Assembly: GCA_043825875.1 (NCBI GenBank)
Contig: JBDRRF010000056.1
Span: forward strand, 1 to 25,512
Direction of reading: 5' to 3'
From: Pseudomonadota bacterium
GTDB taxonomy: Bacteria > Desulfobacterota > Desulfobacteria > Desulfobacterales > RPRI01
DNA: 25,512 bases
The translations under genes were made by a program, and so were the position numbers. This document shows positions 2-22,568 of the stretch, in pieces. Under the pieces are notes generated by a model, which was not told where the DNA came from, ran no database searches, and saw only the letters and a list, made by a program, of their open reading frames with translations. Numbering within the stretch: the first letter of the stretch is position 1; each line of letters opens with the position of its first letter.

Positions 2-1729
2 AAAATCTATAACAATACATTTGCAGATCTTAATTATGCTATGATCCTTGGAATTACTCATGACATCTCTGGCAACGAATTTAAAAACAATATAGTATAT
101 AATGTTGATGGCACCCCAGGATATACAGGATGTACAAGAGGTTATAATGCCTCGGACGAAACAATTTCAGGAGACAGCCACTTAAAATACTTAACAAGTG
201 ATCCTTTTGTAGATTCTACAAATTACGATTATCATATAGTGCTCAGTAATGCTATAGATAATGGTACTGCTTTAGGTTATCCTTATAACTCAGATATGGA
301 TGGTCTAAGCCGCCCTCAAGGATCTACTTGGGATATTGGCGCTTATGAATATAAAGCTCCGATAGTTAGTGTTTCAGCGGATGCAAAAGATTTTGGAAGT
401 ATTACTATTGGCTCGGAAACAAGCTCAGAAATATTCACAGTTTCAAATGACATAAGTGGTGGTTATTTTTATATCAACTCTGTTACACTTACAGGTGACA
501 ATCCTGACCAATTCTTATTTCAAAACGATTCCTGCTCAGGACGAACCATAGCACCAGGCGGAAACTGCACCTTTACGGCAAAATTTCTCCCTACATATGA
601 AGGTGAACATTCTGCAGATATTGATATTAAATATGATGTTGTTACTAAAACCATAGCACTAAGCGGAGAAGGAGTTGAACCAGATATCCCTTATATGTCA
701 ATTTCACCTACTTCGATATCTTTCTCAAATGTTAATACAAATTCCACATCTGCAGCGCAGACAGTTACCATTGAAAACATCGGTAATGAAGCACTCAACG
801 TAAGCAGTATATACAACACAGGAGGAAATGATACTCTGTTTAATATAGTAGATGACGGATGCAGCGCGGGACGGGATATAACAAAGTTCAGTACTTGTAC
901 ATTCGGTGTAACATTTGCGCCGACAACAGGAGGAGAAAAAGAAACAACTCTTACTATCATATCCAATGCCGGCAATTCTCCCTATGAGATACCTTTATCC
1001 GGTAACGGAACTTCAGCCACAAGAGTAACCTCGACCAATTCAACTGTTTCAGAATATACAGTCTCCAATTCAGCATCAGGCAGCCCTTCGGATTATACTA
1101 CCCAATCGCTTACAAGTTATACGTTAACAGGTGTAAGCGGCAGTGCCAATGTCAGTATTACCTATCCTTCTTTACCGGCAAGTCCTGTATTCTATAAAGT
1201 TGTGAGCGGTATGTGGAAAACAATATATCCCACAAATGCTACCTCCGGAATTACAGGCGTTACATTAAGCGGCTTAACTCTTAGCTATACCATTGCAGAC
1301 AACTCCGATTGCGATAGCGATGGAACGACGGGCACCATCACCGACCCGGTAGCCGTAGGCGCTGTAACAACTGCAAGTACAGTTAGTAGTGGCGGGGGTG
1401 GCGGAGGTGGCGGAGGTGGATGCTTTATAGCAACAGCCGCATACGGATCAAGTCTTGATAAACATATAGTAGTACTAAAAAACTTTAGAGATAATTATTT
1501 GTTAACGAATTATTTTGGCAGGGTATTTGTAAATTTCTATTACCGCAACTCACCACCTGTTGCAAATTTCATCCGCAGACATGAAATAGCAAGAGCCGCA
1601 ACAAGATTTGCGCTTGCACCGGCTGTCTACTCCATGAAATATCCGCATGTGTTTGTGGCAATTACATTGATACTGTCCAGCTATATTATAATGCTGTATA
1701 GAAGAAAAAAAGGGAGAAACCTTCATTAA
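2..1729 (+). CDS. Large secreted/surface protein, 5'-truncated by the window: end of a parallel beta-helix region, choice-of-anchor Q-like motif, two Ig-like (choice-of-anchor D/ASH-like) repeats, choice-of-anchor U-like segment, poly-Gly linker, CFI-box-CTERM tail
   Basis: The frame is open from base 2 ([14 protein letters not shown]...), so the ATG at 41 is probably internal. Motifs: [20 protein letters not shown]; two repeats with F-G/S...C.F...F.PT..G...[25 protein letters not shown]10[10 protein letters not shown]...FRDNYL...[10 protein letters not shown], then a TM helix and RRKK. Confidence 0.85.
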
Positions 1730-1830: not shown

Positions 1831-2994
1831 ATGCAAATCAGAACAATAAGAACTAAACAAGAACTAGAAGCTGTGCGTACTTGTTGGGAAGAGTGGCAAA
1901 ACCATCCCAACAATGATTTTGACCACTTCCAGCTTGTTTGTTATCTGCGTGATGAGGTTCTGGGCCCTCACGTCATTGTTGTGGAACGCGATGGCAGGCC
2001 GTGCGCATTGCTTGCTGCACGACTGGAACTTACTCATTTTGTTCCTGCGATTGGTTATTTTAAGCCGATCCGGATACCTGTCACGGTGTTAACAGTAATT
2101 CACGAAGGATTGCTCGGTCAAGTCGACGAAGAAATCGGAGAAGAACTGGTCAGGCATGTGAAGTCCTTTTTATCCTCAGGAGCTGCTGATGCTGCGGTTT
2201 TCCATCATCTTCCCCAAGATTCACCGCTGCTGAAGGCTTTACTGATCCATAAACCGCAATCGTTGACTGAGAAAAAGCCCATATGCTCTACCCACTGGTC
2301 TATGGAGATATCGGAAGAGCAGGGCTTTTTACTAAAAAATCTGAAATCCAAACATCGCTCATGGATTCGCGGAAGAGAAAAAAAACTGAATTCTGCTTTT
2401 CAAGGTAAGGTGTCCTGGCAATGGATGAATCAAATTGATGACCTGCCAAATTTGTGTTCCCAGCTTGAGGAAGTGGCGGCTCATACCTACCAGCGAGGAT
2501 TAGGGTCTGGTTTTATAAACAATGAAGAACACCGGCAACGATTTTCCCTATTTGCAAACCGCGGCCAGTTGCGCGTTCAAGTTCTGAAGATAGATGGGAA
2601 AATCCGAGCCTTCTGGATTGGGACTGTTTACCGTGGCGTTTTCCATTCTTCAGAAACAGGTTATGATTCGGATCTGAGAAATTATGAACCCGGAACTTTG
2701 ATTTTTTTGCGTATGGTAGATGCATTGGCAAATGAAGGAATAAAGAAACTTGATTTTGGACTTGGAGATGCATATTACAAACAGCGGTTCGGAGATAGAT
2801 CCTGGCAACAAGCAACGATACGCCTGTTTGCCACAAGCATAAAAGGCCTTGCACTCAAAACCACTATGGGTCTCTTTGGCACTTTGGATAGTACTGCCCG
2901 TAGTCTGCTGCAAAAATCTGGCTTGGTAGACAGAGTGAAGACCGGATGGCGACGGCGTGTGGCATCAAGGAAAACAGTTAACGACGATAAATAA
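1831..2994 (+). CDS. GNAT-family acyltransferase, CelD/BcsL-like, polysaccharide locus
   Basis: 387-aa ORF with C-terminal GYDSDLRNYEPGTLIF...LDFGLGDAYYKQRF, typical of the Acetyltransf_6/CelD family. Confidence 0.8.
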   Translation: MQIRTIRTKQELEAVRTCWEEWQNHPNNDFDHFQLVCYLRDEVLGPHVIVVERDGRPCALLAARLELTHFVPAIGYFKPIRIPVTVLTVIHEGLLGQVDEEIGEELVRHVKSFLSSGAADAAVFHHLPQDSPLLKALLIHKPQSLTEKKPICSTHWSMEISEEQGFLLKNLKSKHRSWIRGREKKLNSAFQGKVSWQWMNQIDDLPNLCSQLEEVAAHTYQRGLGSGFINNEEHRQRFSLFANRGQLRVQVLKIDGKIRAFWIGTVYRGVFHSSETGYDSDLRNYEPGTLIFLRMVDALANEGIKKLDFGLGDAYYKQRFGDRSWQQATIRLFATSIKGLALKTTMGLFGTLDSTARSLLQKSGLVDRVKTGWRRRVASRKTVNDDK

Positions 2995-4248
2995 ATGAAA
3001 ATTAAAACAATAGCAGATATAGTATCCTGGCGCCTTTGTGTGGGTTGTGGTGCATGTGCGTATATTTGCAAAAACAATTACATCGAACTCAGAGATATCA
3101 TAGATCATGGAATAAGACCCATTCTATCTACGGACCAATGTGGAACATGTTCAGATTGTCTGCAAGTTTGTCCGGGTTATTCAACACCTATCCTTGGTAA
3201 TAATGAAGCAACGGAAAGCACTCATAATTCAAGCGAAAAAGGCTGGGGGCCTGTTATCGAAATATGGGAAGGCTACGCAAACGATAGTGAAGTTCGTTAT
3301 AATGGATCTTCAGGTGGCGCAGCAACTGCGATAGCTTTATACTGTCTTGAAAAGAAAGAAATGCACGGGGTCTTGCATATTGGTAGTAATGAAAAGGACC
3401 CTTTGAAAAATGATGTTTTTTTAAGTAAAAATCGATCAGATATATTATCCAGAACAGGTTCCAGGTATTCCCCGGCTTCTCCTTGTTCCGGCTTGGATAA
3501 GATTGAATCTGCTCCTTCTCCTTGTGTATTTATCGGTAAGCCATGTGATGTTGCGGCAAACCGTATGGCATGCTCGATAAGACCGGAACTCAAAGATAAA
3601 ACCGGAATATCCATAGGAATTTTCTGCGCTGGTACCCCTTCGAGCAGAGGTCTGCTCGATTTGTTGAGGGAAAAGAACATAAATCGCAACACAGTTAAGG
3701 ATGTCAGGTATAGAGGTAAAGGTTGGCCTGGAATGTTTAAAGTAGAGTCAAACCGTTCCCAAAATCCATTTCAAAAAATGACATATATGGAAGCATGGGG
3801 ATTCTTACAAAAATACCGGCCTTACCGGTGCTATCTATGTCCGGATGGCACTGCTGCCTATGCAGATATCTCTTGTGGCGATCCATGGTATCGAACAATA
3901 CAGGAAAATGAGCCCGGTTATTCGCTTGTTATTGTGAGAACTGCAAAAGGCAAAGAAATTCTTAAAGGTGCAATTGAGGCTGGTTATTTATCGATGGAAC
4001 GTATAGATATTCAAAAATTAATAGACTCCCAAGAAGGGTTACTACGGAAAAGAAAAGAAGTATGGGGCAGATTCTTGATGATGAAAATGTTTGGTCTCCC
4101 GACTCCTCAATACCCAGAATTCTTTCTTTTTCAGCAATGGGTTGCTTCATCAACCAGTCAAAAACTTCGCTCGCTTTTGGGTACCTTACGCAGAATTATT
4201 CAGCGTAAATATTTTTTACCTTTCAATACTAATAAAGAAAATAATTAA
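2995..4248 (+). CDS. Coenzyme F420 hydrogenase/dehydrogenase beta-subunit (FrhB/FdhB)-like protein with N-terminal 4Fe-4S ferredoxin domain
   Basis: CVGCGACAYIC and CGTCSDCLQVCP; SSGGAATA, GSRYSP, FIGKPCDV, IGIFCAG, RCYLCPD, ADISCGDPW. ATG directly follows the upstream stop (TAAATG). Confidence 0.85.
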   Translation: MKIKTIADIVSWRLCVGCGACAYICKNNYIELRDIIDHGIRPILSTDQCGTCSDCLQVCPGYSTPILGNNEATESTHNSSEKGWGPVIEIWEGYANDSEVRYNGSSGGAATAIALYCLEKKEMHGVLHIGSNEKDPLKNDVFLSKNRSDILSRTGSRYSPASPCSGLDKIESAPSPCVFIGKPCDVAANRMACSIRPELKDKTGISIGIFCAGTPSSRGLLDLLREKNINRNTVKDVRYRGKGWPGMFKVESNRSQNPFQKMTYMEAWGFLQKYRPYRCYLCPDGTAAYADISCGDPWYRTIQENEPGYSLVIVRTAKGKEILKGAIEAGYLSMERIDIQKLIDSQEGLLRKRKEVWGRFLMMKMFGLPTPQYPEFFLFQQWVASSTSQKLRSLLGTLRRIIQRKYFLPFNTNKENN

Positions 4249-4276
4249 TCTTGCTTAAACCACCTGTATTTTACAC

Positions 4277-5752
4277 ATGATTCGAGAGTTCCGACAGCAC
4301 GTCACAGATATAATAAGAAGCCACTTTGCTGGCAATACTCTTAAGGGTAAAGTAGCTAGTAGCGCTGTTTGGTTAGCCACTGCTAATGGCACAGGGAATG
4401 CCCTCAGGCTATTGCGCAACATGATACTTGCACGCCTGCTTGCACCTGAAGCATTTGGTATAATGGCCACTGTCATAGCTTCTGTTTCTGTAATGGAGGC
4501 ATTTGCAGAAGTTGGTCTAAAGCAATCAGTTATTCAAAACAAGAAAGGTGCGGATAAAGGATATCTTAATATCACTTGGTGGCTGACATCATTACGGGGG
4601 ATATCTCTCTATACCATTGCTTTTTTTGCCGCACCTCTGATAAGTCAATTCTTTAATAAACCGGATTCAGAGATATTCCTTCGTGTCGGTTTCCTGGCCA
4701 TATTGTTGAATGGATTAATAAGCCCTAAACTTCATGTTTTGCAAAAGAATTTGAAGTTTGCAAAATGGATCCTTGTTATGGATGGTGCTGGTGTTTTAGG
4801 TGTAACATTTACAATCATACTTGCTTTTTATATACAAAGTGTCTGGGCTTTAGTGTTTGGTTATACAGCAGAAGCTTTACTGCGGTTGCTTCTATCTTTT
4901 ATTGTTTGTCCTTTTAAACCACATTTTTCATTCGATAAATCATATCTTTCAGATATTCTGAAGTTCTCAAAGCAAATGTTTGGTTTGCCCATTTTAATGA
5001 TGTTTTTTATTCAATCCAGCGTATTTGTTATAGGGCGGGTATTATCGCTGGAAGAACTGGGAATGTTTACTTTAGCAAGGAGCTTGGCTGAAATACCAAG
5101 CACTTTGTATTCAAGAATCATTTCACCTGTTCTTTTGCCAACTCTCTCTAACATACAGGACAATAAAGAAAAACTTAACAGTATTTTATTAAAAATTAAT
5201 AAACTAACAGCTACTTTAGGAATACCATTTATCACCTTTTTTATAGTCTTTTCGAAACCCCTGCTAAGCCTGGTTTATGGCCATAATTATTCTGACGTAT
5301 CAACCCCGTTTAGTATATTATGTATTTACACATATATTTTTATTTGTTCGGCACCTATTGTGACTATGTACATTGCAACTGGGAAACCCGGCATTCATCG
5401 CAACGCATCGGCTTTGAAAACCATACTATTACTTATCTTGATTTATCCCGTAACAAAAATTTTCGGGTTAATTGGTGCTTCCTTTGCTATTTTGTTAGCA
5501 ATGTGTTCAGGATTCTTAGTGCAGATCGTATATGCACATAAATTAATAGATTTTCGGGTAAATTTATACATAAAAGGTTGGTCTATAGGAGCAGCTTCAT
5601 CATTAATCGTGATGCTGCCAGGAGTTATTATAATTAATTTTACTAAGCTATCTGATCTATCCACTATTTGCATTGGTACTATTTTGTTTTTGACAGCTTG
5701 GATAGTTGGTATTGCATATTTGGGTTCTTTTGCAGGAAAGGACAGGCGTTGA
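4277..5752 (+). CDS. Wzx-like oligosaccharide flippase (PST/MOP family)
   Basis: Many TM segments; LARLLAPEAFG and E/D-xGLxQSVIQ motifs of WzxC-like flippases. Confidence 0.85.
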   Translation: MIREFRQHVTDIIRSHFAGNTLKGKVASSAVWLATANGTGNALRLLRNMILARLLAPEAFGIMATVIASVSVMEAFAEVGLKQSVIQNKKGADKGYLNITWWLTSLRGISLYTIAFFAAPLISQFFNKPDSEIFLRVGFLAILLNGLISPKLHVLQKNLKFAKWILVMDGAGVLGVTFTIILAFYIQSVWALVFGYTAEALLRLLLSFIVCPFKPHFSFDKSYLSDILKFSKQMFGLPILMMFFIQSSVFVIGRVLSLEELGMFTLARSLAEIPSTLYSRIISPVLLPTLSNIQDNKEKLNSILLKINKLTATLGIPFITFFIVFSKPLLSLVYGHNYSDVSTPFSILCIYTYIFICSAPIVTMYIATGKPGIHRNASALKTILLLILIYPVTKIFGLIGASFAILLAMCSGFLVQIVYAHKLIDFRVNLYIKGWSIGAASSLIVMLPGVIIINFTKLSDLSTICIGTILFLTAWIVGIAYLGSFAGKDRR

Positions 5753-5800
5753 GTCTGATGCCCCCAAAATACATGTTCACCAGAGAAGGGAAGTTTATTG

Positions 5801-6442
5801 ATGATAGCATACAGAGATCGGAGGTTTCTTGACATCTTTCTTTTTACGCTTTACAGATTCAACAATCGACTTACAAGAAATGCTATTCTGAAGCTGATAT
5901 TGAGGCGAAAGGGAGCGGGATTTTACTCGAAGACATTGCGCAAATTGCTTTCGAAATATCATAAAGTCGAGATAGGAATGTATTCGCGAGGTGCATTTTG
6001 GGCAGATTTACCTCCCGGCACGATAGTTGGCCACTATTGTTCTTTGGCTAAAGGCCTTGTTGTGGTTAACGGAAGTCACCCCGTCAAGAACAAATCGACC
6101 CATGCCTTTTTTTTTAACCCTGATTTGGGATACGCCGACAGTCTCTTGATCGAGCGACGAAAAAGCCTGAATATTGGCCATGACGTTTACATGGGGTTGA
6201 ATGTAACACTACTCCCCAATGTAACATCGATTGGGACAGGGGCAGTTATTGCGGCAGGTAGTGTGGTAACAAAAGATGTGCCTCCCTATGCAATAGTAGG
6301 AGGTAATCCGGCAAAGATCATAAAATACCGTTTTTCTGAGGAAAAAATTAATGAGCTAATTCAATCTGCATGGTGGGATAAGAGTATTGAAGAACTAAAA
6401 GAAAATCAATTTGAATCATTTATTAAGCCTTTTGACATCTGA
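5801..6442 (+). CDS. Hexapeptide-repeat O-acetyltransferase (CatB/XAT-like)
   Basis: IGHDVYMG...IGTGAVIAAGSVVTKDVPPYAIVGGNPAKIIKYRF...WWD. ATG at 5801 (TTG at 5798 is an alternative) after GAAGGG. Confidence 0.85.
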   Translation: MIAYRDRRFLDIFLFTLYRFNNRLTRNAILKLILRRKGAGFYSKTLRKLLSKYHKVEIGMYSRGAFWADLPPGTIVGHYCSLAKGLVVVNGSHPVKNKSTHAFFFNPDLGYADSLLIERRKSLNIGHDVYMGLNVTLLPNVTSIGTGAVIAAGSVVTKDVPPYAIVGGNPAKIIKYRFSEEKINELIQSAWWDKSIEELKENQFESFIKPFDI

Positions 6443-6481
6443 CTTATTTTCACCATTTTTAGCTTAAAGCTGATTTCGGTA

Positions 6482-6712
6482 ATTAGAAATAAATATTCGC
6501 AAACTAATTTTGCCGGAAAAGCGTTTTTGAACTTATATTACAAATATTCCCCCCCTGCCGCAGATTTCATCCGCAAACATGACACTGCAAGAACCGCAAC
6601 ACGAATTGCCCTTACCCCAATTGTCTATAGCGTTCAATATCCGTATCTTCTGCTTCTGCTTTTAATACTTCCAACGCTCATTCTTATAAAAAGAAGAAAG
6701 ACTATAATTTAG
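6482..6712 (+). pseudogene. Orphan 3' remnant of a CFI-box-CTERM sorting tail
   Basis: [60 protein letters not shown] aligns with the tail of the first CDS ([54 protein letters not shown]). It lacks [10 protein letters not shown] and any upstream domain. Confidence 0.75.
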
Positions 6713-7035
6713 ACAGGATCAACAAGATGTACAGGATTTTGCCTACGGCAAGTGGAACAAGAGAAAACACAAAACTCATGAATCATTAGCCGCCGACTAA
6801 CGCGCAGACAAACGCAGAAAGAGATTTGATTAACATTCAAATAAAACTTACCTGCAATAGCAGCATGTCAGCATTTTAAGAATTTTTCCTCTCAAAAATT
6901 TCTTAAAAAAACTCTGTGACTCTGAGAACTCTGTGAGAGATTTAAAAGATACAAGGCACAAGTTTATACACTTTATGGTTATCGATTTACTGTCAACTGG
7001 TAACCGGAAACTGAAAACCGACACAATCCTGTCTG
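6708..7035. repeat. Scaffold repeat A: complete unit bounded by AGACAGGAT...ATCCTGTCT inverted ends; left bracket of the TA array
   Basis: AGACAGGAT at 6711-6719 and ATCCTGTCT at 7026-7034; near-identical direct repeat at 13505-13815. Confidence 0.85.
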
Positions 7036-7127
7036 ATAAATTTTCGTTTGATACCTTTAAGTTGACATATTGCTTGATTATTAATAATAATAACTCAAAA
7101 AGATAGGTATCTATCATGGAGATTAAT

Positions 7128-7385
7128 ATGCTAACACAAACTTTAAATATTAATGAATTCAAGACTCAACTTTCACAGTTGTTAGAAGAGGTTGCAACTG
7201 GTTCGGAGGTAATTATCTCTAAAAGAGGCAAGCCAATAGCTCGGCTTTCGAGAATCGAAGGCGGTAAACCTAAAATCCGATTTGGCGTTCTCAAGGGCAA
7301 GGTCAAAGTGGCTGATGATTTTGACGCACCACTGCCCAACGAAATCCTCTCTGAATTCGAGGATAAAAATGCAGCTCCTGCTTGA
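7128..7385 (+). CDS. TA1 antitoxin, Phd/YefM family
   Basis: NINEFKTQLSQLLEEVATGSEVIISKRGKPIARL; GGAG RBS before ATG 7128 (7116 is an alternative). Confidence 0.85.
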   Translation: MLTQTLNINEFKTQLSQLLEEVATGSEVIISKRGKPIARLSRIEGGKPKIRFGVLKGKVKVADDFDAPLPNEILSEFEDKNAAPA

Positions 7386-7746
7386 TACGCAGATTTTTAT
7401 TTGGCCTGTTATGGACAGTAAAAAGCTTGGAACAGAAGCTCGGCAGATTATACTCAATGCCGTCAAAGTTTTTGTTTCAGCAGCCTCAGTCTGGGAAATT
7501 GCAATCAAGACAAAAATAGGCAAATTGGAAGGCGAGCCGAAAGAGTTTGCAGCTGCAATTGCAAAAAGTGGATTCAGCGAGCTTCCCATCTCAGCCTATC
7601 ATGCTACTATGGTATATGAGTTACCTCTTTATCATCGGGACCCATTCGATCGGATGTTGATAGCTCAAGCCCTTGCCGAACCCCTTAGAATTTTGACTGC
7701 AGACAGGATGTTAAGCCAATATTCCGAGTTGGTAATCACAGTTTAA
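7369..7746 (+). CDS. vapC: TA1 toxin, PIN/VapC ribonuclease
   Basis: MQLLLDTQ...SAASVWEIAIK...HRDPFDRMLIAQA...LTAD; the start at 7369 overlaps the antitoxin end. Confidence 0.9.
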   Translation: MQLLLDTQIFIWPVMDSKKLGTEARQIILNAVKVFVSAASVWEIAIKTKIGKLEGEPKEFAAAIAKSGFSELPISAYHATMVYELPLYHRDPFDRMLIAQALAEPLRILTADRMLSQYSELVITV

Positions 7747-7752
7747 TCTAAC

Positions 7753-8077
7753 CCAACGCTTATTCTTATAAGAAGAAAAACTATAAATTAGACAGGATCA
7801 ACAGGATGGTCAGGTTTTTTTGTCTGCTGGCCAAGCCATTTCCTATGGCAAGTAGGTCAAGAGAAAGCACAAAACTCCTAAAGCATTAGCCGCCGACTAA
7901 CGCGCAGACAAACACAAACTTTATAATATCTGTGAACGTCCGCGGCTGTCCGCGGCAAATATGAAGTTAATTTTTCCCCTTCACCTGTCCGGATGCCGAT
8001 CAGACAATAAGCCATCACCTACGGCAAGGTTATTATAATAAAGTCTAAAGTGAAAGAAGTATTGACACATAAAACGA
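7753..8077. repeat. Scaffold repeat B, preceded by a copy of the last ~40 nt of the CFI remnant
   Basis: 7753-7800 resembles 6671-6720; AGACAGGAT at 7790; 7871-8077 is near-identical to 12475-12682. Confidence 0.85.
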
Positions 8078-8151
8078 TATACATTGACATATATCACATG
8101 GCTTGATAGATTTTTATCCGACATGATAAGATTTTACGAGGAGGTTGCGAG

Positions 8152-8397
8152 ATGAAGAGTGCAAGAACCATCATTACGATTTCGGAACAGGAAAAAAGAT
8201 GGCTGGCCGCATACAGTGGGCTCCACGGTGTTTCACTGGCGGAAGCCGTCCGCAGAGGCATCGCCTACCTGAAAGCAGCGGAAGGCGGTTCCTCATATCG
8301 GAAAATCGTGCAGAACACCGTTGGAATCTGGAACCGGGGCGACGCACTGCGCTACCAGGAAGATATCCGCTCTGAGTGGGAAAAACCTTCATGTTAG
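8152..8397 (+). CDS. TA2 antitoxin, probable ribbon-helix-helix/CopG-like
   Basis: RTIITISEQEKRWL...GVSLAEAVRRGI; C-terminal GIW...DALRYQEDIRSEW; AGGAGG RBS; lies directly upstream of a PIN gene. Confidence 0.75.
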   Translation: MKSARTIITISEQEKRWLAAYSGLHGVSLAEAVRRGIAYLKAAEGGSSYRKIVQNTVGIWNRGDALRYQEDIRSEWEKPSC

Positions 8398-8765
8398 AGA
8401 AGTTGCTCGATTCCGTCATCCTCATAGACCATCTCAACGGCATCCCACAGGCATCTGAATTTCTCCTCACACTGGATCCGGCGAAAACGGCCATATCAGT
8501 GGTCAGTTATGCTGAGATTCTGACGGGTCTGGATAAGGACGGGAAAAGGAAAGCTTTGCCGCTGCTGAATAGTTTCGAGATACTGGGAATCGATACCGCC
8601 GTGGCCGAGAAAGCTGCAACGCTCCGGCAGCAGCATGGTTGGAAGCTGCCAGACGCCTTTCAGGCTGCTATTGCTATACTTCACGGTATCAAGTTGTGTA
8701 CCCGCAACACCAAAGACTTCAATCCGCAGAAACACCCCTTTGTAGAAATTCCCTATTATCTTTAA
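8391..8765 (+). CDS. vapC: TA2 toxin, PIN/VapC
   Basis: LLDSVILID...SVVSYAEIL...WKLPDAFQAAIA...LCTRNTKDF. Confidence 0.9.
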   Translation: MLEKLLDSVILIDHLNGIPQASEFLLTLDPAKTAISVVSYAEILTGLDKDGKRKALPLLNSFEILGIDTAVAEKAATLRQQHGWKLPDAFQAAIAILHGIKLCTRNTKDFNPQKHPFVEIPYYL

Positions 8766-8782
8766 ATGAAAAAGCCAAGTTT

Positions 8783-9054
8783 TTTAGACAGGATCAACAG
8801 GATGTACAGAATATTTTACCTTTCGGCCGGAAGCCGGGCAGGCAATAAGCCATCGCCTGCGGCAAGTTGAACAAGAAAAAGCACAAAACTCATGAATCAT
8901 TAGCCGCCGACCGACGCAGACAAACACAAACTTTATAATATCTGCGAACGTCCGCGGCTGTCCGCGGCAAATATGAAATTATTTTTTTCCTCCCCTGCAT
9001 CGTTAAATTCCAAAGGACTATTAAACCGGGGTCAAAAAATTCTATAAAAAAACT
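8783..9054. repeat. Scaffold repeat C
   Basis: AGACAGGAT at 8786; GCCTGCGGCAA and TTAGCCGCCGAC...GTCCGCGGC modules; 8911-9054 is repeated at 9596-9737. Confidence 0.85.
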
Positions 9055-9154
9055 TTTTGCCTTTTTTGAAAGATGGCATCATATTAACTATATGTAAGAC
9101 ATTGTTTTTACCAAGATCGCTAATCCATCATAAAGTTGTAGGAAAGGAGTCGCT

Positions 9155-9391
9155 ATGACAACTTATAATACAATAGAAGCGGTTGTTAAAGAAGGAGTAA
9201 TTTATCCTCTGGACCCAAAGAAATTACCGAGAGAAGGTAAGCTGCTCTTGATAGTCCTTGACGAAAAGAACATTCAACCTGATATTGAAAAAATAAGAAA
9301 TTTACTTGGATGGTTAAAAACTGATGCGGACTCGGTTAAATGGCAGCAACAGATCAGGTCAGAATGGGATAAACGTCTATGCGACATTTAA
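9155..9391 (+). CDS. TA3 antitoxin, AF2212/DUF104-like
   Basis: TIEAVVKEGVIYPLDPKKLPREG N-terminus, DSVKWQQQIRSEW C-terminus; AAGGAG RBS; overlaps the PIN gene. Confidence 0.7.
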   Translation: MTTYNTIEAVVKEGVIYPLDPKKLPREGKLLLIVLDEKNIQPDIEKIRNLLGWLKTDADSVKWQQQIRSEWDKRLCDI

Positions 9392-9588
9392 TAGACACTA
9401 ATGTGTGGATAGACGCTTTATCAGGCAAACTTGCCGCTTCAACTTTTTTAAAATTTTCTGTTCAAGCAAGTTGGGCGGGATACTCCGCCATTACAAGGCT
9501 TGAACTGTTAGGCTATCCGGGCCTTAAGCATGAGGAAGATTTCAAAGGTATTGTCGGTTTGGATATTGTTGATCCACATACAATATGA
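9379..9588 (+). pseudogene. TA3 PIN toxin with an in-frame internal deletion
   Basis: The N-terminal LIDTNVWID...SAITRLELLGYP joins directly to the C-terminal DFKGIVGLDIVDP; 69 aa against 124-140 aa for the neighbouring PIN toxins. Confidence 0.8.
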
Positions 9589-9595
9589 GATCCAA

Positions 9596-9756
9596 CCAAC
9601 ACAGACAAACACAAACTCTATAATATCTGCGAACGTCCGTGGCTGTCTGCGGCAAATATGAAGTTAAATTTTTCCCCTGCACCGTTAAATTCCAAAGGAC
9701 CATTAAACCGGAGTCAAAAAATTCTATAAAAATAACTCTGTGTACTCCGTGAGAGA
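9596..9756. repeat. Scaffold repeat D (internal fragment)
   Basis: Direct repeat of 8911-9054, continuing into the CTCTGTG...GTGAGAGA module. Confidence 0.85.
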
Positions 9757-9784
9757 CAAGTAAAAGTACAAGGAGATTTGTAAA

Positions 9785-9964
9785 ATGAATACACTAAAGC
9801 AAGAAGCATTAACAGCGATTGAACAACTTCCGGATACCGCTGACATAGATGCAATCATGTATAAACTCTATGTGATCGATAAAGTAAGAAAAGGAAGAGA
9901 AGCCATTGAAAAAGGTGATATGATATCTGCGGAAGATCTGAAGCGGGAAAGCGATGCATGGTAA
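9785..9964 (+). CDS. TA4 antitoxin (59 aa; absent from the ORF track)
   Basis: Hand translation MNTLKQEALTAIEQLPDTADIDAIMYKLYVIDKVRKGREAIEKGDMISAEDLKRESDAW*; AGGAG at 9771-9775; overlaps the toxin start at 9958. Confidence 0.8.
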   Translation: MNTLKQEALTAIEQLPDTADIDAIMYKLYVIDKVRKGREAIEKGDMISAEDLKRESDAW

Positions 9965-10272
9965 TCTGGGCCACACCGGCAAAGTCTGACTTGAAAGCCA
10001 TTTACGATTTTATAGCATCTGACTCAAAATATTATGCAAAGAAAGTGGTCCGGGATATTATTACAAAAACGAATATACTCGAAGAACATCCGGGAATTGG
10101 CAGGCAAGTTCCAGAGATAAATGATGAAAACCTACGGGAAATCTTTATATATTCATACAGAATCCTTTACGAAATCAAATATGGTAAGATTTATATTATA
10201 GGAATAATTCACGGCAGACGTGATTTTGCATCCACAGATTTTCACAGAATCAAGAAGCATGACAACAGCTAG
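9958..10272 (+). CDS. TA4 toxin, RelE/ParE superfamily
   Basis: VIWATPAKSDLKAIYDFIA...HPGIGRQVPE...REIFIYSYRILY...IIHGRRDF. Confidence 0.85.
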   Translation: MVIWATPAKSDLKAIYDFIASDSKYYAKKVVRDIITKTNILEEHPGIGRQVPEINDENLREIFIYSYRILYEIKYGKIYIIGIIHGRRDFASTDFHRIKKHDNS

Positions 10273-10413
10273 AGACCTTTGCAAAACGTCCCCTTTTGCC
10301 CGATTACTTCGTCAGACTCAAATTTTAATCCTCGAAATACTCAATGTATTCCTGTGGTTAAAATTTTCGTCTTCCTTGTACTTGGACAAAATTGAACATT
10401 TTTCAAAGGTCTC
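10272..10413 (+). mobile_element. 142-bp MITE-like palindromic element, copy 1, with 5-bp flanking duplication AGCTA
   Basis: Ends GAGACCTTTGCAAAACG / CATTTTTCAAAGGTCTC (15/17 inverted match); AGCTA at 10267-10271 and 10414-10418; 33-nt core identical to copy 2. Confidence 0.8.
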
Positions 10414-10432
10414 AGCTAACCATTAAACGCTA

Positions 10433-10577
10433 TGGGAGATTTAAAAGATACAAGGCACAAGTTTATACACTTTACGGTTATCGATTTACTGTCAACTGCT
10501 AACTGACAACTGGCAACCGGAAACCGGAAACCGATTTAATCCTGTAAATCCTGTCTGGTAAGTTTTTACTTCGGTAC
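10433..10577. repeat. Scaffold repeat E (right half, heptamers, ATCCTGT x2 end, linker)
   Basis: GAGATTTAAAAGATACAAGGCACAAG... as at 6937-6994; six AACYGNN heptamers at 10494-10535; AATCCTGTAAATCCTGTCTG at 10538-10557. Confidence 0.85.
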
Positions 10578-10703
10578 CTCTTTTAACTTGACACTTCGCT
10601 TTATTCAACCGTATTGCCCTTAGATCCCTTGTCTCTTATTTGCTTTTAGAGAACAACTCTGATAATCTGCTTAATAATAGATTCTTTTAAGGAGCATTGT
10701 ATT

Positions 10704-10931
10704 ATGCAAACAATTGATTTGAATCAAGCAAAACAAAATTTACCCAAACTGATTGAACAAACAATCCAAGGGGATGATATTGTGATAACTAAAGGGGGGC
10801 AACCTCTTGTTAGACTTGTAGCTTTTACCAACCATAATAAAAAAAAACGACAGTTCGGAGGTGCAAAAGAATTTATACGATTTGCAGACGATTTTGATAT
10901 GCCAATAGAAGATTTTAAAGAGTATATGTAA
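10704..10931 (+). CDS. TA5 antitoxin, Phd/YefM family
   Basis: IDLNQAKQNLPKLIEQ...IVITKGGQPLVRL; AAGGAG RBS; TAATG stop/start overlap with the toxin. Confidence 0.85.
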   Translation: MQTIDLNQAKQNLPKLIEQTIQGDDIVITKGGQPLVRLVAFTNHNKKKRQFGGAKEFIRFADDFDMPIEDFKEYM

Positions 10932-11317
10932 TGCAGGCGATACTGGATACAAACAGCTTTTTATGGTTTATCAGCGGCAGTGAGAAATTAAGCATTAACG
11001 CTCTTGAATTTATTGCTGACTCAAACAATCGGCTTGTTATGAGCACTGCCGGTTTATGGGAAATTGCAATCAAGGTAAGTATCAATAAACTTAACCTATT
11101 ACAGCCATACGAAAAACTCATCCCTCAACAGCTTAAAGAAAATGATATAAATGTTATGCCAATCGAACTAAGCCATCTGGCTAAAGTAATAGAATTACCG
11201 TTTTACCACCGCGATCCTTTTGATCGGATAATCATTGCCCAAGCGCTTATAGAAAATCTGCCGATAGTAACTTCCGATTCAATATTTTCACAATACTCTG
11301 TAAAACTCATCTGGTAA
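10931..11317 (+). CDS. vapC: TA5 toxin, PIN/VapC (same subfamily as TA1)
   Basis: ILDTNSFLW...LWEIAIK...HRDPFDRIIIAQA...IVTSD. Confidence 0.9.
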   Translation: MQAILDTNSFLWFISGSEKLSINALEFIADSNNRLVMSTAGLWEIAIKVSINKLNLLQPYEKLIPQQLKENDINVMPIELSHLAKVIELPFYHRDPFDRIIIAQALIENLPIVTSDSIFSQYSVKLIW

Positions 11318-11391
11318 AATGTTTTTAAAGCTACAAACCATCAATGTAACCAGCTAAAACATATCAATATCTGTAATTAGATGGTTGATGG

Positions 11392-11502
11392 GAACAGAGA
11401 GTCCATATAAACTTCCACCAAACACAAACTGACAACTGGCAACCGGAAACTGTAAACTGTCAACTGGCAACCGGAAACTGAAAACCGACATAATCCTGTC
11501 TG
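11392..11502. repeat. Scaffold repeat F with nine tandem AACYGNN heptamers and ATCCTGTCTG end
   Basis: 11392-11450 resembles 12693-12752; heptamers at 11427-11489; ATCCTGTCTG at 11493-11502. Confidence 0.85.
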
Positions 11503-11544
11503 CCATTTTTAACCTTGTTTGTTCCTTACAAACTTTTTCACAAC

Positions 11545-11573
11545 TTGACAATGGCCATAATTATAGCTATTAT
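11545..11573 (+). promoter_or_regulatory. Sigma70 promoter of TA6 with a twin-palindrome operator
   Basis: TTGACA-N17-TATTAT; ATGGCCAT (11551-11558) and ATAGCTAT (11563-11570) palindromes overlap the spacer and the -10. Confidence 0.75.
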
Positions 11574-11618
11574 TTCAGAGAATACTTGTTGTACAAGAAA
11601 TGGGAGGGAATAATAACT

Positions 11619-11903
11619 ATGGAAGAACAATATACAATAGTAGATGCTAAAAATAAGCTGACATCAATCATCCATTCCGTTGAAACCGGCCATGCTGTTA
11701 AACTGACCAGGCATGGCAAACCCGTTGCCGTTTTATTATCAATAAAAGATTATCAAAGGCTAAACAGTAAAAAAGAAGGCTTTTACAATGCGCTAAATTC
11801 CTGGCGAAAAAACATGGCAAAAGAAGAAGATGCAGTTATTACAGGTGAAGAATTTGATGATGTCAGAGATAATTCATCAGGCCGGAACATCGACTTATTA
11901 TGA
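11619..11903 (+). CDS. TA6 antitoxin, Phd/YefM family
   Basis: YTIVDAKNKLTSIIHSVETGHAVKLTRHGKPVAVLLSIKDY; GGAGG RBS. Confidence 0.88.
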   Translation: MEEQYTIVDAKNKLTSIIHSVETGHAVKLTRHGKPVAVLLSIKDYQRLNSKKEGFYNALNSWRKNMAKEEDAVITGEEFDDVRDNSSGRNIDLL

Positions 11904-12322
11904 TAAAGTACCTGCTTGATACAAACATCTTATCCGAACCTGTGAAAGCTTGTCCCAACAAGTATGTGATGGCAATGCTTGAAAAACATCAAGATGAGAT
12001 TATAACGGCTGCTCCGGTATGGCATGAACTTCTGTATGGTTACCTTCGGCTTCCGGTTTCCCGTAAGCGGGAGATGATCGAAGCATATCTTGAAGAAGTT
12101 GTACTGAGAAACATGGATATACTTCCCTATGATGAGCGGGCAACAAAATGGCATGCGGAACAAAGAGCCAAACTATCCTTGCATGGGAACACTCCATCTT
12201 TTGTAGACGGTCAGATCGCAGCAATAGCTAGTGTTAATGATCTGATTCTGGTCACACGTAACACTCAGGATTTCAAAATGTTTGAAAGTTTCCGTGTTTT
12301 AAACTGGCATAAAACAGGTTAA
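11900..12322 (+). CDS. vapC: TA6 toxin, PIN/VapC (FitB-like)
   Basis: YLLDTNILSE...VWHELLYG...DGQIAAIA...LVTRNTQDF; ATGA overlap with the antitoxin. Confidence 0.9.
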   Translation: MIKYLLDTNILSEPVKACPNKYVMAMLEKHQDEIITAAPVWHELLYGYLRLPVSRKREMIEAYLEEVVLRNMDILPYDERATKWHAEQRAKLSLHGNTPSFVDGQIAAIASVNDLILVTRNTQDFKMFESFRVLNWHKTG

Positions 12323-12389
12323 AAATATTAGTTTTTATCTATAATTAATCCCAATTACTGTTCGGGGTGTCAAGCTTAATAGTTTAAAT

Positions 12390-12762
12390 CAGACAGGATG
12401 AACAGGATCTTACCGACTGACCGGAAGCCAGGCAGGCAATAAGTCATTGCCTACGGCAAGTGGAATACGTTCTAAAAACTCATGAATCATTAGCCGCCGA
12501 CCAACGCAAACAAACACAAACTTTATAATATCTGCGAACGTCCGCGGCTGTCTGCGGCAAATATGAAGTTAAATTTTTCTCCCCTGCACCTGTCCGGATG
12601 CCGGTCAGACAATAAGCCATCGCCTGCGGCAAGGTTATTATAATAAAGTTCAAAGAGAAAGAAGTATTGACACATAAAACGAATGTCTGAGAGAACAGAG
12701 CGTCTATATAAACTTCCACCAAACGCTAACTGACAACTGGCAACCGGAAACTGGAAACCGCT
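12390..12762. repeat. Scaffold repeat G (longest contiguous variant-2 unit)
   Basis: CAGACAGGAT at 12390; contains the modules of B and F in contiguous order; five heptamers at 12728-12762. Confidence 0.85.
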
Positions 12763-12790
12763 TGACACAATCTTAGATTGGCATTAAAAT
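12762..12790 (+). promoter_or_regulatory. Sigma70 promoter of TA7 with a palindromic operator
   Basis: TTGACA-N17-TAAAAT; CAATC-TTA-GATTG palindrome at 12768-12780. Confidence 0.75.
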
Positions 12791-12820
12791 GGTCATAATA
12801 ATTTTATTTTGGAGTTTATC

Positions 12821-13084
12821 ATGAGCAATATTCAACAAATCATGCCTGTTACAAAGGTCAAGAGAGGGCTTCTTGATATACTCAAGACCATGCAGGAGGA
12901 GGATTCTACAATAACCCTTACGAGAAATGGTGAGGCTGTTGGTGTTATGATGACTCCTGACCGCTACGAAGCTCTATTGGAAACTATTGAAATACTGGCG
13001 GATAAAAAAGCTCTGGCATCTCTTAAGTCTTCGGCGGATGATTTTAAAACCGGAAGGATTTATACTGACAAAGAGGTTTGGTAA
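12821..13084 (+). CDS. TA7 antitoxin, Phd/YefM family
   Basis: MPVTKVKRGLLDIL...ITLTRNGEAVGVMMTPDRYEALLETIEIL; GGAG RBS before ATG 12821. Confidence 0.88.
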   Translation: MSNIQQIMPVTKVKRGLLDILKTMQEEDSTITLTRNGEAVGVMMTPDRYEALLETIEILADKKALASLKSSADDFKTGRIYTDKEVW

Positions 13085-13089
13085 AATCA

Positions 13090-13389
13090 ATGTCCGGCTA
13101 CCGTCTTCTGTATTCGGAGACATCCCGAAATTTGATTGGCAAACTGCACCCTGACATAAAGCCTGTTATCAGAGCAAAGCTTGACAAACTTATAAAAGAG
13201 CCTTTCATGGGTAAAAATCTGGAAAGAGAATTATCCGGATACAGGTCGCTTAGGGCCGGTCGTTTTAGAATTATTTACAGGCTGAATGATGAAGAACAAA
13301 TTATTGAAATCCATTTTATAGGGCGTCGTAAGGATGTATATGAACTATTTACCGAGCAAAAGGGCATATCATCTATATTGGACGCATAG
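13090..13389 (+). CDS. relE: TA7 toxin, RelE/StbE family
   Basis: EPFMGKNLERELSGYRSLRAGRFRIIYRL...IHFIGRRKDVYE. Confidence 0.85.
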   Translation: MSGYRLLYSETSRNLIGKLHPDIKPVIRAKLDKLIKEPFMGKNLERELSGYRSLRAGRFRIIYRLNDEEQIIEIHFIGRRKDVYELFTEQKGISSILDA

Positions 13390-13477
13390 CAAACAGCTAA
13401 GTTATTAAGTAACCTGCTAATGTAAAAAGGGAAAGTAAGTAGCGAAGCGGATACATGCTTCAGACCGCTCTTCCGGA

Positions 13478-13815
13478 AAGTTTTTACTTTGGTACTATTA
13501 CAGTTTTAGACAGGATTAACAGGATAGACAGGATTTTGCCTACGGCAAGTGGGTCAAGAAAAAGCACAAAACTCCCAAAACATTAGCCGCCGACCAACGC
13601 AGACAAACGCAGAAAGAGATTTGATTAACATTCAAATAAAACTTACCTGCGATAGCAGCATGTCAGCATTTTAAGAATTTTTCCTCTCAAAAAATTCTTA
13701 AAAAATCTCTGTGACTCTGAGAACTCTGTGAGAGATTTAAAAGATACAAGGCACAAGTTTATACACTTTATGCTTATCAATTTACTGTAAACTGTTAACC
13801 GGCAACTGCAAACGA
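13478..13815. repeat. Scaffold repeat H: linker plus ~310-bp direct repeat of A; right bracket of the array
   Basis: 13478-13495 matches 10560-10577 at 17/18 positions; 13505-13815 resembles 6708-7020, including the CAGAAAGAGATTTGATTAACATTC...CTCAAAAA block found only in A and H. Confidence 0.9.
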
Positions 13816-13842
13816 TTTTATACTACAGGAAAGATACCGACT

Positions 13843-14718
13843 ATGACTGAAAGCTATTTTAGCAAAAGAAATTTATTGTTTTCTGCGTTCATATTAATTG
13901 CTGTCTTGATGTGTTATCTGCCTCTTAGAGAACTTCTTTCTACAACCTCAAACAGGGAATACTATTCTCATATACTTCTTATTCCTTTTGTCAGCGGATA
14001 CCTCATTTTTATAAAGAGAAAAGAAATATATTCTGATAAATCTTATTCTTTCGGAGCCGGTGGTGTTTTTCTCCTTATCGGAATTGCTTTATATGCAACA
14101 GGACTTATTAACAAACTAAATCTCAATCAAAATAATTATGCATCTCTTACAACATTTTCTGCTGTGATATTGATTTCAGGCGCTTTTATATTTACTTATA
14201 GTTTTTGTGCTTTCAAAAAAGCTCTCTTTCCGCTCCTGTTTCTTATATTTACGGTTCCGATTCCAAGTTATTTAATGGAAAGATTTATTTATTTATTACA
14301 ATCAGGATCTACTGAGTTTGCAAATTTTTTACTGACAGTCACAGGCGTTCCTTTTTTAAGAGATGGCTTTTACTTTCATCTTTCAAGCATGAGCGTTGAA
14401 GTGGCAAAACAATGCAGTGGAATCAGATCGGGCCTTGCGCTTTTTATTACTGCCCTTCTTGCCGGGCATCTTTTTCTTAAAACCGGACGCAATAAAATAA
14501 TATTAGCTGTTTGTGCATTGCCTGTTACAATGTTTAAAAATGGAATCAGGATTATTACTCTGGCATTGCTGGGTAACTACGTGGACCCGAGAATTCTTCA
14601 AAGCGATCTTCACAGGGAAGGAGGAATCCCGTTTTTTATTGTAGCTTTGCTGCTGCTTGCACCGATTCTTTATTTTTTAAGAAAATCGGAAACAAAAGGG
14701 GAAGGGGAAACCAAATAA
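13843..14718 (+). CDS. Exosortase (EpsH/Xrt family transpeptidase)
   Basis: About 8 TM segments; EYYSHILLIP, catalytic Cys in VAKQCSGIRS, KNGIRI (Arg), DLHREGG (His). Confidence 0.9.
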   Translation: MTESYFSKRNLLFSAFILIAVLMCYLPLRELLSTTSNREYYSHILLIPFVSGYLIFIKRKEIYSDKSYSFGAGGVFLLIGIALYATGLINKLNLNQNNYASLTTFSAVILISGAFIFTYSFCAFKKALFPLLFLIFTVPIPSYLMERFIYLLQSGSTEFANFLLTVTGVPFLRDGFYFHLSSMSVEVAKQCSGIRSGLALFITALLAGHLFLKTGRNKIILAVCALPVTMFKNGIRIITLALLGNYVDPRILQSDLHREGGIPFFIVALLLLAPILYFLRKSETKGEGETK

Positions 14719-16071
14719 TTATTTCCCGGTTTTTTTCTCTTTCTTAAGTTTACGCCATTTCTCAAGTCTTTGCCTGATTGTTTTTTCATAACCTCTTTCG
14801 GTTGGAAAATAAAAAAGAACGCCTTCAAGCTTATCAGGCAGGTATTCCTGAAATACATATTCTTCTTTATAGTCATGAGCATATTTATAGTCCTTGCCAT
14901 AACCCAGATCTTTCATAAGAGATGTCGGAGCATTTCTGATATGAAAAGGAACAGGAAGCGCTCCTTCGCTTTTAACGGCTCTCTGGACTCTCCCATATGA
15001 AGTATATACGCTATTGCTCTTGGGTGCAGTCGAAAGATAAATTACAGCTTGTGCAAGAACAAGCTCGCCTTCAGGTTGGCCGATAAATTTAAATGCTTCC
15101 ATTGCACTTACCGTAATGCTTAAAGCATATGGATCGGCATTTCCAATATCTTCTGAAGCAAATCTTATCATCCTTCTTGCTATAAAAAGTGGATCTTCAC
15201 CGGCTGAAAGCATTCGGGCAAGCCAATATAAAGCAGCATCAGGATCACTTCCTCTCATGCTCTTATGAAGTGCAGATATCAAATTGTAGTGTTCTTCACC
15301 CGTTTTGTCATACAGCAAAGCTTTTTTCTGAAGAGCCTTCTCTATATCTGTAAGCGTTATTTTTATTTCCCCATCATCTTTTTTCTTCTTTCCTGCCGCA
15401 ATTTTAGCAGCTATTTCAAGGCTGTTTAAAGCCATCCTTGCATCACCATCCGATATTCTTACAAGATGTGATAATACATCGTCTGATAGCAAAAGATTTA
15501 ATTCTCCAAGCCCTCTTTCCTTATCTTTAAGGGCGCCGCTAATTATCCGGGCCACATCATCATCGGATAGAGTTTTTAAAGTAATTACCCTGCATCGTGA
15601 AAGAAGAGGAGAAATAACTTCAAAAGAAGGATTTTCGGTTGTTGCGCCTATTAAGGTTATTAATCCGCTTTCAACATGGTGTAAGAATGCATCCTGCTGG
15701 GCTTTGTTGAATCTGTGAATTTCATCGACAAAAAGAATAGTTTTTTGCTTAAAAAGTTTAAGCTGGTTTTTTGCTTCTTCAATTACAGCTCTTATATCTT
15801 TAACACCGGAAAGTACTGCTGAAAAATGCATAAAATAAGAACTTGTTTCACGGGCGATAATTCTTGCAAGTGTTGTTTTGCCACATCCCGGAGGGCCCCA
15901 AAGAATCATTGAAAAAACCTGGTCATTTTCTATTGCATGCGCAATCAAGGTCCCTTCGGCAACAACATGTTCCTGACCTGCAAATTCATTAAGACTTCTC
16001 GGGCGCATCTTCTCGGCAAGAGGCTTTGAGTCATTTCCTGTTCTTTCCAAGTTGTATTCAAATAAATCCAA
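14719..16071 (-). CDS. rarA: Replication-associated recombination protein A (MgsA/RarA AAA+ ATPase)
   Basis: PLAEKMRP, WGPPGCGKTT, FVDEIHRFNKAQQD, ISALHKSMRGSDPDAA. Likely TTG start at 16071 (MDLFEY) after GGGGA; the longer ORF start lies inside the adjacent inverted repeat. Confidence 0.93.
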   Translation of the reverse strand: MDLFEYNLERTGNDSKPLAEKMRPRSLNEFAGQEHVVAEGTLIAHAIENDQVFSMILWGPPGCGKTTLARIIARETSSYFMHFSAVLSGVKDIRAVIEEAKNQLKLFKQKTILFVDEIHRFNKAQQDAFLHHVESGLITLIGATTENPSFEVISPLLSRCRVITLKTLSDDDVARIISGALKDKERGLGELNLLLSDDVLSHLVRISDGDARMALNSLEIAAKIAAGKKKKDDGEIKITLTDIEKALQKKALLYDKTGEEHYNLISALHKSMRGSDPDAALYWLARMLSAGEDPLFIARRMIRFASEDIGNADPYALSITVSAMEAFKFIGQPEGELVLAQAVIYLSTAPKSNSVYTSYGRVQRAVKSEGALPVPFHIRNAPTSLMKDLGYGKDYKYAHDYKEEYVFQEYLPDKLEGVLFYFPTERGYEKTIRQRLEKWRKLKKEKKTGK

Positions 16072-22426: not shown

Positions 22427-22568
22427 GAGCCACTTTCAAAACGTTTCAGTTTGGTCAAGCTCAAGGCGGGAGAGGATTTCAACCACAGGAATACATTGAG
22501 TATTTCGAGGATTGAAATTTGAGCCCAACGCAGAGATCGGCCAAAATGGGGCGTTTTGAAACTGGCTC
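22427..22568 (-). mobile_element. 142-bp MITE-like palindromic element, copy 2 (inverted), with 4-bp flanking duplication GATA
   Basis: Ends GAGCCACTTTCAAAACG / CGTTTTGAAACTGGCTC (16/17); GATA at 22423-22426 and 22569-22572; 22481-22513 is the reverse complement of 10327-10359. Confidence 0.8.

Follow-up and report, generated by a model that had tools for sequence, protein, structure and literature searches.

A toxin-antitoxin array on a scaffold of GxxExxY-cassette arms in a surface-polysaccharide locus of the Desulfobacterales

What gathers several unrelated toxin-antitoxin (TA) pairs into one co-oriented row when no integron machinery is in sight? The question is raised by contig C56 of genome G000, a 4.77-Mb assembly from the Desulfobacterales (GCA_043825875.1; contig accession JBDRRF010000056.1). 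The contig was analysed over its full length of 25,512 nucleotides and is called the window here. Between 7125 and 13389, its open reading frame (ORF) listing contains 14 small ORFs that form seven TA pairs, all on the plus strand, numbered T1–T7 in array order and bordered by a duplicated 3′ end of a CFI-box gene on the left and an exosortase gene on the right (Table 1). The explanation we favour, with moderate confidence, is that this array is a recombination hot spot made of worn-down foldback elements, in which promoter-bearing TA modules are moved by recombination between repeat arms and kept by addiction.

Family calls for T1–T7 are based on Pfam and NCBIfam profile searches. With Pfam, the array proteins yield four Phd matches, four PIN matches, two ParE/RelE matches and one weak AF2212-like match. 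The T2 antitoxin has a weak RelB/ribbon-helix-helix (RHH) match, and the 59-aa antitoxin partner of T4 matches no family in either collection. The four best sigma-70 matches of the region, which are consensus matches only, lie upstream of T1, T2, T6 and T7. As coupled antitoxin-toxin pairs of known families with promoters of their own, these units qualify, judged from sequence, as type II TA modules. The T3 toxin (9379–9588) is 69 aa long, lacking 57 internal codons in frame compared with its 126-aa homologue in the relative G011, so that six pairs are intact. An earlier sequence-only reading had described seven co-oriented, non-redundant pairs with no other cargo. Their number, strand and types are borne out by the profile searches, TA pairs are the sole cargo, and the toxins are mutually dissimilar, the best pair sharing 44% identity; the internal deletion in T3 is the one correction. 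An anti-phage role for the array, also raised by that reading, is possible and finds no support here: none of 13 array proteins matches a described defence system in a PADLOC-DB 2.0.0 scan, a 2023 library that would miss plain TA defence. The array might act as a stabiliser of its locus, by analogy with superintegrons.

Repeats are found in all eight gaps of the array and make up 42–85% of each; modules known from elsewhere cover 2129 of the 3085 gap bases. Stranded module matches in the window, those of a palindrome described below apart, are uniform in direction (45 of 45 on the plus strand), and the two array ends share a 311-bp direct repeat at 92% identity (6708–7018 and 13505–13813). The gaps had been thought to be filled by a single repeat family. 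BLAST of the gaps against the genome resolves them instead into a mosaic of at least four unrelated families plus a 142-bp palindrome resembling a miniature inverted-repeat transposable element (MITE). The scaffold parts are arms of three foldback families, A, B and C, together with 7-mer arms of four-helix-bundle genes; the 7-mer arrays in the gaps resemble those flanking such a gene on contig C40. Complete A, B and C elements are branched palindromes with outer stems of tandem 8–10-mers (cores ACAGGAT, CGCAGAC and CTCTGTG, respectively), and they fold far better than shuffled sequences (z of −5.7 for A, in G013, −4.9 for B and −6.8 for C; −4.9 to −7.7 among complete elements of relatives). 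Single window gaps, folded alone, are mostly unremarkable (z of 0.2 to −2.2) because they hold half-elements. Gaps 2 and 7 retain stubs of GxxExxY gene starts. An Rfam scan of 6400–14000 returned no match at E ≤ 1. The MITE was considered as a scaffold component and rejected: since it is missing from the T4 unit of both G011 and G013 and has a 5-bp duplication at this copy, it is best read as a late insertion, and it shows no TA association (6 of 268 copies outside the arrays of C56 and C40). A second window copy lies at 22427–22568, and copies in the genome often sit at contig ends.

The arms originate from cassettes that carry a GxxExxY gene (PF13366/TIGR04256, by profile match). Members of this family occur in 74 of 121 genomes from the order and in 14 of 17 from the genus. 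Tandem arm motifs lie within 220 nt of 50 of 53 GxxExxY genes, compared with 13 of 937 control ORFs of G000. The 53 genes were drawn from the order, the genus and four loci of other phyla, with only the best-scoring matches fetched; the motif classes were defined after inspection of the first 35 genes, and four rows were retrieved via the A arm. Among 14 genus rows new to the motif definition, 12 have arms. On the protein tree, from which three unlabelled rows were omitted, the five arm types require four changes, the minimum possible; shuffled labels require 21.4 on average, and none of 200 shuffles is as low. Kin do share labels, yet several arm types occur within single genomes, so the pairing of arm and clade does not reflect host phylogeny alone. 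Arm type, in other words, tracks the clade of the GxxExxY nuclease. Proteins of about 260 aa with two tandem GxxExxY domains occur in G028, G060, G110, G129 and G132, and ORF6N-domain genes stand beside A arms in two unrelated genomes (L130, L166), where they may represent another hairpin-carried family.

Decay of these cassettes can be followed as a deletion series that runs from an intact arm-gene-arm unit (G006) through half-genes (G008:C125, G000:C76) to empty hairpins. The cassette of G006 sits between two conserved genes, and the insert is absent there in G011, G013 and G016. At the site syntenic with the array in G013 (CFI-box gene to exosortase), the tandem A palindromes are interspersed with an intact GxxExxY gene of the A type, a DUF433 gene and an unnamed pair of genes. 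The N-terminus of that A-type protein, KEVLTHK, occurs twice in the six frames of the G000 genome, both times in the array (8053 and 12658) and directly 3′ of the inner hairpin found ahead of the gene in A cassettes. T7 lies between the F-stub and G modules, which is the place of the GxxExxY gene in intact A cassettes. Contig C135 of G013, which holds an A-type GxxExxY gene, has about twenty tandem A arms (L042:10267–14193), several of which carry a short 5′ piece of the T4 antitoxin copied with the repeat. In G008, a complete gene-less A element lies between the exosortase gene and rarA (L037:7828–8249); in the window these genes abut at 14718–14719 and the element is gone.

The GxxExxY protein has a predicted PD-(D/E)XK fold (predicted local distance difference test score 88; best Z 8.7, root-mean-square deviation 2.8, 97 residues aligned), with D66, E76 and K78 invariant in five of five aligned rows. 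Its profile has no match among the sequences of solved structures. We deduce no specific activity from the fold, because the search scored many PD-(D/E)XK proteins middling. Could GxxExxY itself be a dedicated cassette enzyme, one that cleaves the cognate hairpin and moves cargo units in or out, with attC-like arms as substrates and the protein supplied in trans from C40? The strict pairing of arm and clade would suit such a role. So would the two intact GxxExxY genes of G000, of B and C type and both on C40 at 8997–9386 and 19611–19994, the precise inverted termini of complete elements within AT-rich flanks, the position of T7, and the many cargo genes that begin 20–35 nt past a C right arm. 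We nonetheless consider it unlikely: cargo junctions vary in position, no target-site duplication is seen at the ends of A, B or C elements, and most arms have no cargo. We also know of no strand-joining activity for a PD-(D/E)XK fold of 129 aa.

TA units are exchanged among sites and genomes, as far as sequence comparison can tell. In a search of five genus relatives with the array DNA, T4 was found in G011 (96%) and G013 (92%), at other sites; T6 in G008 (87%), G013 (84%) and G002 (78%); T7 in G013 (78%); T3 in G011 (82%); and a portion of the T5 antitoxin in G016. None of the five genomes gave a match to T1 or T2 at E ≤ 1e-40. On G013:C150, after a different host gene, the order is T6, MNT-HepT, T4, DUF433-DUF5615, T7, a GxxExxY stub and VapBC, so that both the site and the order of T4, T6 and T7 differ from those in the window; T4 in G011 occupies a third site. 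G008:C106 carries a 5-kb array of four pairs on scaffold modules, one of them in common with the window. This contig is likely linked to the exosortase contig of G008, C104, C105 and C106 not being joinable from the data. Further arrays are found in G002, G005, G010, G013 and G016, and in G012 and G002 the exosortase gene is present without an array upstream. Two other sequencing studies of a related population contain contigs in which T6 and T7 are each joined to scaffold whose best match is gap 1 (joints 7033–11492 and 7044–12757, the intervening letters not being known). In three genomes the arms around T4 and around the DUF433-DUF5615 pair stay the same whereas their neighbours differ, and eroded T4 fragments lie within the scaffolds of G008 and G013. 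Against near relatives, T4 and T6 homology ends within arm modules at varying positions; such scattered crossovers inside shared arms fit homologous or microhomology-guided recombination, not one site-specific cut. A single precise cargo junction was searched for and not found. The presence of comEC in G000 says little about transformation, because comEC is also called in 10 of 14 control genomes.

With the same TA pairs in other orders and places in relatives, the array looks like the product of integron-free collecting and swapping. The sequence-only reading had likewise proposed an integron-like, cassette-accumulating locus without attC or integrase, and had asked how the interval compares across strains: content and order are not identical, and the same site holds different cargo. 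Is the array nevertheless a decayed cluster of attC sites with no integron integrase (CALIN), served by one of four integrases elsewhere in the genome? An integron or CALIN requires at least two attC sites with R″/R′ boxes, L boxes with an extrahelical base and a bottom-strand hairpin. There is no IntI near the array, so only the CALIN form comes into question, and cassette content and order do vary. Four IntI genes score above cut-off (on C51, C68, C79 and C107, none on C56), short TAAC-containing stretches after T1 and T4 resemble an attC start by eye, and chromosomal integrons are enriched in TA cassettes, according to one account (PMC13108822). Our attC scan is a heuristic of our own, not IntegronFinder, and misses some sites. 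Its first version recovered one site around the four intI genes, too weak a control, and it was therefore rerun genome-wide with looser settings. This gave 41 matches, none of them on C56 or C40, with canonical sites on C51, C75, C76, C97, C109 and C110; a stricter scan found none in the arrays of three relatives. Moreover, the repeats have another, identified origin. An integrase in trans thus exists, without a visible substrate in the array, and we give the CALIN explanation very little credence. T1 as a former integron cassette was also rejected: it has three homologues in 200 genomes, with no attC noticed by eye. Canonical attC sites without an intI match nearby occur at C109 65038–65762, C75 1740–1813, C97 2976–3035, C76 89656–89713 and C110 52880–53009. 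The window holds no recombinase, as had been proposed, whereas the genome at large contains, besides the four IntI genes and the two intact GxxExxY genes, 13 Y1_Tnp matches, none on C56 or C40 and none coinciding, by eye, with an arm cluster; a Y1 enzyme might still act in trans.

Arms are not confined to the window. There are 33 arm clusters in G000, 18 of them on C56 and C40. The latter carries a second polysaccharide cluster, in which scaffold modules flank the two intact GxxExxY genes and a four-helix-bundle gene, and TA-type cargo on these modules comprises MNT-HepT, VapBC and three DUF433-DUF5615 pairs. On C100 (996–3622, L004), a lone PIN gene lies between near-identical A elements, one with a GxxExxY 3′ fragment, a one-unit version of an array. 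The exact A-arm pattern recurs in at least 125 stretches across many phyla. Most arms have neither a TA nor a GxxExxY neighbour and are therefore solo elements, so a wide dispersal of the repeats without TA enrichment, which was to have spoken against a cassette locus, is partly what we see. TA arrays are a local outcome.

Several observations weigh against movement of TA modules by arm recombination. Of the 15 arm clusters outside C56 and C40, two have a PIN, ParE, Phd or Polbeta match no farther than 1 kb away (random expectation 2.2%), and 36 of the 45 TA loci of G000 are farther than 500 bp from an arm, nine being closer. Among 75 A-arm loci across phyla (79 listed minus four overlapping duplicates), six have a GxxExxY match within 1 kb, and in five at least one of the two nearest small ORFs is a TA-type gene. 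No intact A-type GxxExxY gene was found in G000 by profile and six-frame peptide search. Junctions are not nucleotide-precise, and in comparison with distant relatives T6 and T7 homology ends at the −35 box, outside any arm. T3 in G011 and two of three T1 homologues have no A, B or C arm nearby. Neither excised circles nor new insertions nor nuclease activity were seen. Module order, collinear at 84:6 in the window from which it was set, is not so in G008:C97 (25:19) or G013:C150 (13:13), and a universal order was rejected. Lastly, no contig of sequencing run X1, which may be the source sample, spans the array; its pieces break at repeats, and cassette order is not verified by reads.

This last point would also suit an assembly artefact, in which array order or joining is caused by the repeats. 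X1 depth, however, is even (27–35) over all seven units and both flanks, with no differing letters, a 1632-bp X1 piece joins T5 to T6, and independent assemblies of G008, G013 and G016 contain equivalent arrays, all of which makes an artefact very improbable. Two other runs, X2 and X3, cover the exosortase gene, T6 and T7 and not T1, T3 or T5; missing cover was not counted as evidence. A different alternative is that TA modules and foldback elements settle independently in tolerant, often-exchanged surface-polysaccharide clusters, the repeats not moving cargo at all. The separate occurrence of most TA loci and most arms speaks for this, as do the T1 and T3 homologues without arms and the fact that T6, T7 and VapBC homology with distant relatives stops at the promoter. 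It is harder to reconcile with the repeat share of every gap, with the constant arm context of T4 and DUF433-DUF5615 amid changing neighbours, or with the direction of module matches in six other arrays (139 of 141 co-oriented), and the abundant intergenic MITE has no TA link (7 of 272). We regard independent settling as improbable.

On the favoured explanation, the array would have arisen as follows. Small cassettes of a GxxExxY gene and inverted tandem-repeat arms, in three clades (A, B and C) and patchy between conserved genes, shrink through internal deletion to gene-less hairpins. Co-oriented arms have accumulated between the CFI-box gene and the exosortase gene, and elsewhere in the surface-polysaccharide clusters of the genus. 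Self-contained, promoter-bearing TA modules would move between such sites and genomes; the shared content is seen in relatives, and the mechanism is what we propose. The repeats would also drive deletions, which addictive TA modules may outlast better than other cargo, so that the array would fill with TA pairs. Finally, by analogy with the SsnA hairpin, intact GxxExxY proteins from elsewhere might cleave their own hairpins when these are single-stranded or cruciform, and might thereby set off or bias recombination.

Beyond the array, the CFI-box gene has a second copy of its 3′ end (1485–1648 and 6483–6712). Because the scaffold borders on the full gene in both G008 and G013, the four genes at 1831–6442 (GNAT, FrhB-like, flippase and acetyltransferase) seem to have entered through recombination within this gene end. 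A four-helix-bundle gene (PF05635; 16125–16560, minus strand) lies between rarA and der inside 37-bp inverted tandem-repeat arms, conserved in G008, and is an intact example of the gene-in-hairpin design outside the array.

Table 1. Features of the window (contig C56) and the array on contig C40 of the same genome.
Feature	Position	Strand	Remarks
CFI-box-CTERM surface protein gene	41–1729	+	5′ end beyond contig; full gene abuts scaffold in relatives
Duplicated CFI-box 3′ end, left array border	6483–6712	+	third short tail at about 7753–7790
Gap 1	6706–7044	+	A left arm, linker, B left arm, C right arm, 7-mer arm, A right arm; left 311-bp repeat copy
T1: Phd antitoxin, PIN toxin	7125–7746	+	Pfam; own sigma-70-like promoter 7062–7091
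Gap 2	7787–8078	+	A left arm, complete B hairpin, inner hairpin F, A-type GxxExxY start stub (about 8050–8078)
T2: RHH-like antitoxin, PIN toxin	8152–8765	+	GC content at third codon positions higher, 0.57–0.59; promoter-like site 8084–8112
Gap 3	8779–9052	+	A left arm, F, linker, complete B hairpin, module I
T3: AF2212-like antitoxin, PIN toxin	9155–9588	+	toxin with internal in-frame deletion (69/126 aa)
Gap 4	9592–9759	+	partial B hairpin, module I, C right arm
T4: 59-aa partner without known family, ParE toxin	9785–10272	+	Pfam
MITE-like palindrome, 142 bp	10272–10413		272 genome matches; 5-bp duplication at this copy
Gap 5 remainder	10414–10569	+	C-arm tail, 7-mer arm, A right arm
T5: Phd/DUF2281 antitoxin, PIN toxin	10704–11317	+	Pfam
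Gap 6	11390–11516	+	module H, 7-mer array (7.7 copies), A right arm
T6: Phd antitoxin, PIN toxin	11619–12322	+	promoter 11545–11573
Gap 7	12388–12762	+	A left arm, F, B hairpin, F, second GxxExxY start stub (12655–12682), H, 7-mer arm
T7: Phd antitoxin, RelE/ParE toxin	12821–13389	+	promoter 12762–12790
Gap 8	13440–13813	+	inner hairpin G, then right 311-bp direct repeat copy
Exosortase gene, right array border	13843–14718	+	
C40 array (L001, L002)	G000:C40 8841–12710 and 17009–20075		both intact GxxExxY genes, wecB-like 3′ fragment, five TA-type pairs

In REP, REPIN and BIME elements (families of short bacterial palindromes) with their RAYT enzymes, the enzyme gene lies between cognate palindromes, and there are dispersed gene-less derivatives and mosaic clusters. 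GxxExxY cassettes, solo arms and mosaic clusters follow the same plan, with a partner enzyme that is not an HUH Y1 transposase; to our knowledge, BIMEs do not form TA arrays. The genes of the 23S rRNA intervening-sequence, or four-helix-bundle, family (PF05635, TIGR02436) likewise sit in the loop of a long stem, and 7-mer arms of this kind occur in the scaffold, here within protein-coding operons rather than 23S rRNA. A closer parallel is offered by the Ssn nucleases of Neisseria, in which, as described, a small single-domain nuclease gene is flanked by its own SRM/NTS (dRS3) hairpin motif, with many nuclease-motif pairs, and SRM clusters lie beside variable surface genes, where they are proposed to provide homology for recombination (PMC11893778). 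GxxExxY genes, too, are flanked by clade-specific hairpin motifs. Ssn proteins, however, are GIY-YIG nucleases (cd10448), and cleavage by the PD-(D/E)XK protein is predicted by analogy; the arms here are tandem 8–10-mers that close branched palindromes of 60–490 bp, three arm families are mixed, and the cargo is TA pairs. With sedentary chromosomal integrons and CALINs (PMC4889954, PMC13108822), the array shares co-oriented, shuffled units, hairpin-forming spacers and promoter-bearing TA units lethal on excision; loss of a TA cassette kills, hence its retention in chromosomal integrons, as is reported (PMC13108822). It differs in having neither attC nor a nearby IntI, in its mosaic spacers of 200–500 bp, in its imprecise junctions and in a cargo that is almost only of TA type. 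The array, then, functions like a CALIN or superintegron TA array yet fails the attC test, and resembles the Ssn/SRM and REP/RAYT systems with another enzyme fold. In the literature consulted, mostly open-access papers without their supplements, we found no account of GxxExxY hairpins or of such arrays; PF13366 is given as of unknown function in one source (PMC3424549).

A more far-reaching proposal, which we make tentatively and hold to be rather doubtful, is that GxxExxY proteins are clade-matched hairpin nucleases, and that in many phyla they drive a cassette system independent of integrases. Arms in surface-polysaccharide clusters would then be landing and exchange sites, and the arrays would be what this system has captured, adjusted to hold TA modules that stabilise the locus or trap phages. 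Whichever holds, an orphan nuclease family, PF13366, is now tied to defined candidate DNA substrates, and since there is one arm type per clade, its activity is directly testable with a few oligonucleotides. The locus also points to a route by which TA-dense, shuffling arrays may form in loci that determine the cell surface, with no need of attC or IntI. Should GxxExxY indeed work on the arms, the Ssn principle would have a second case, structurally unrelated to the first, and the family might serve as a source of sequence-specific hairpin nucleases. If host recombination alone acts, the array would still be a clear case of mobile-element debris becoming a cassette platform.

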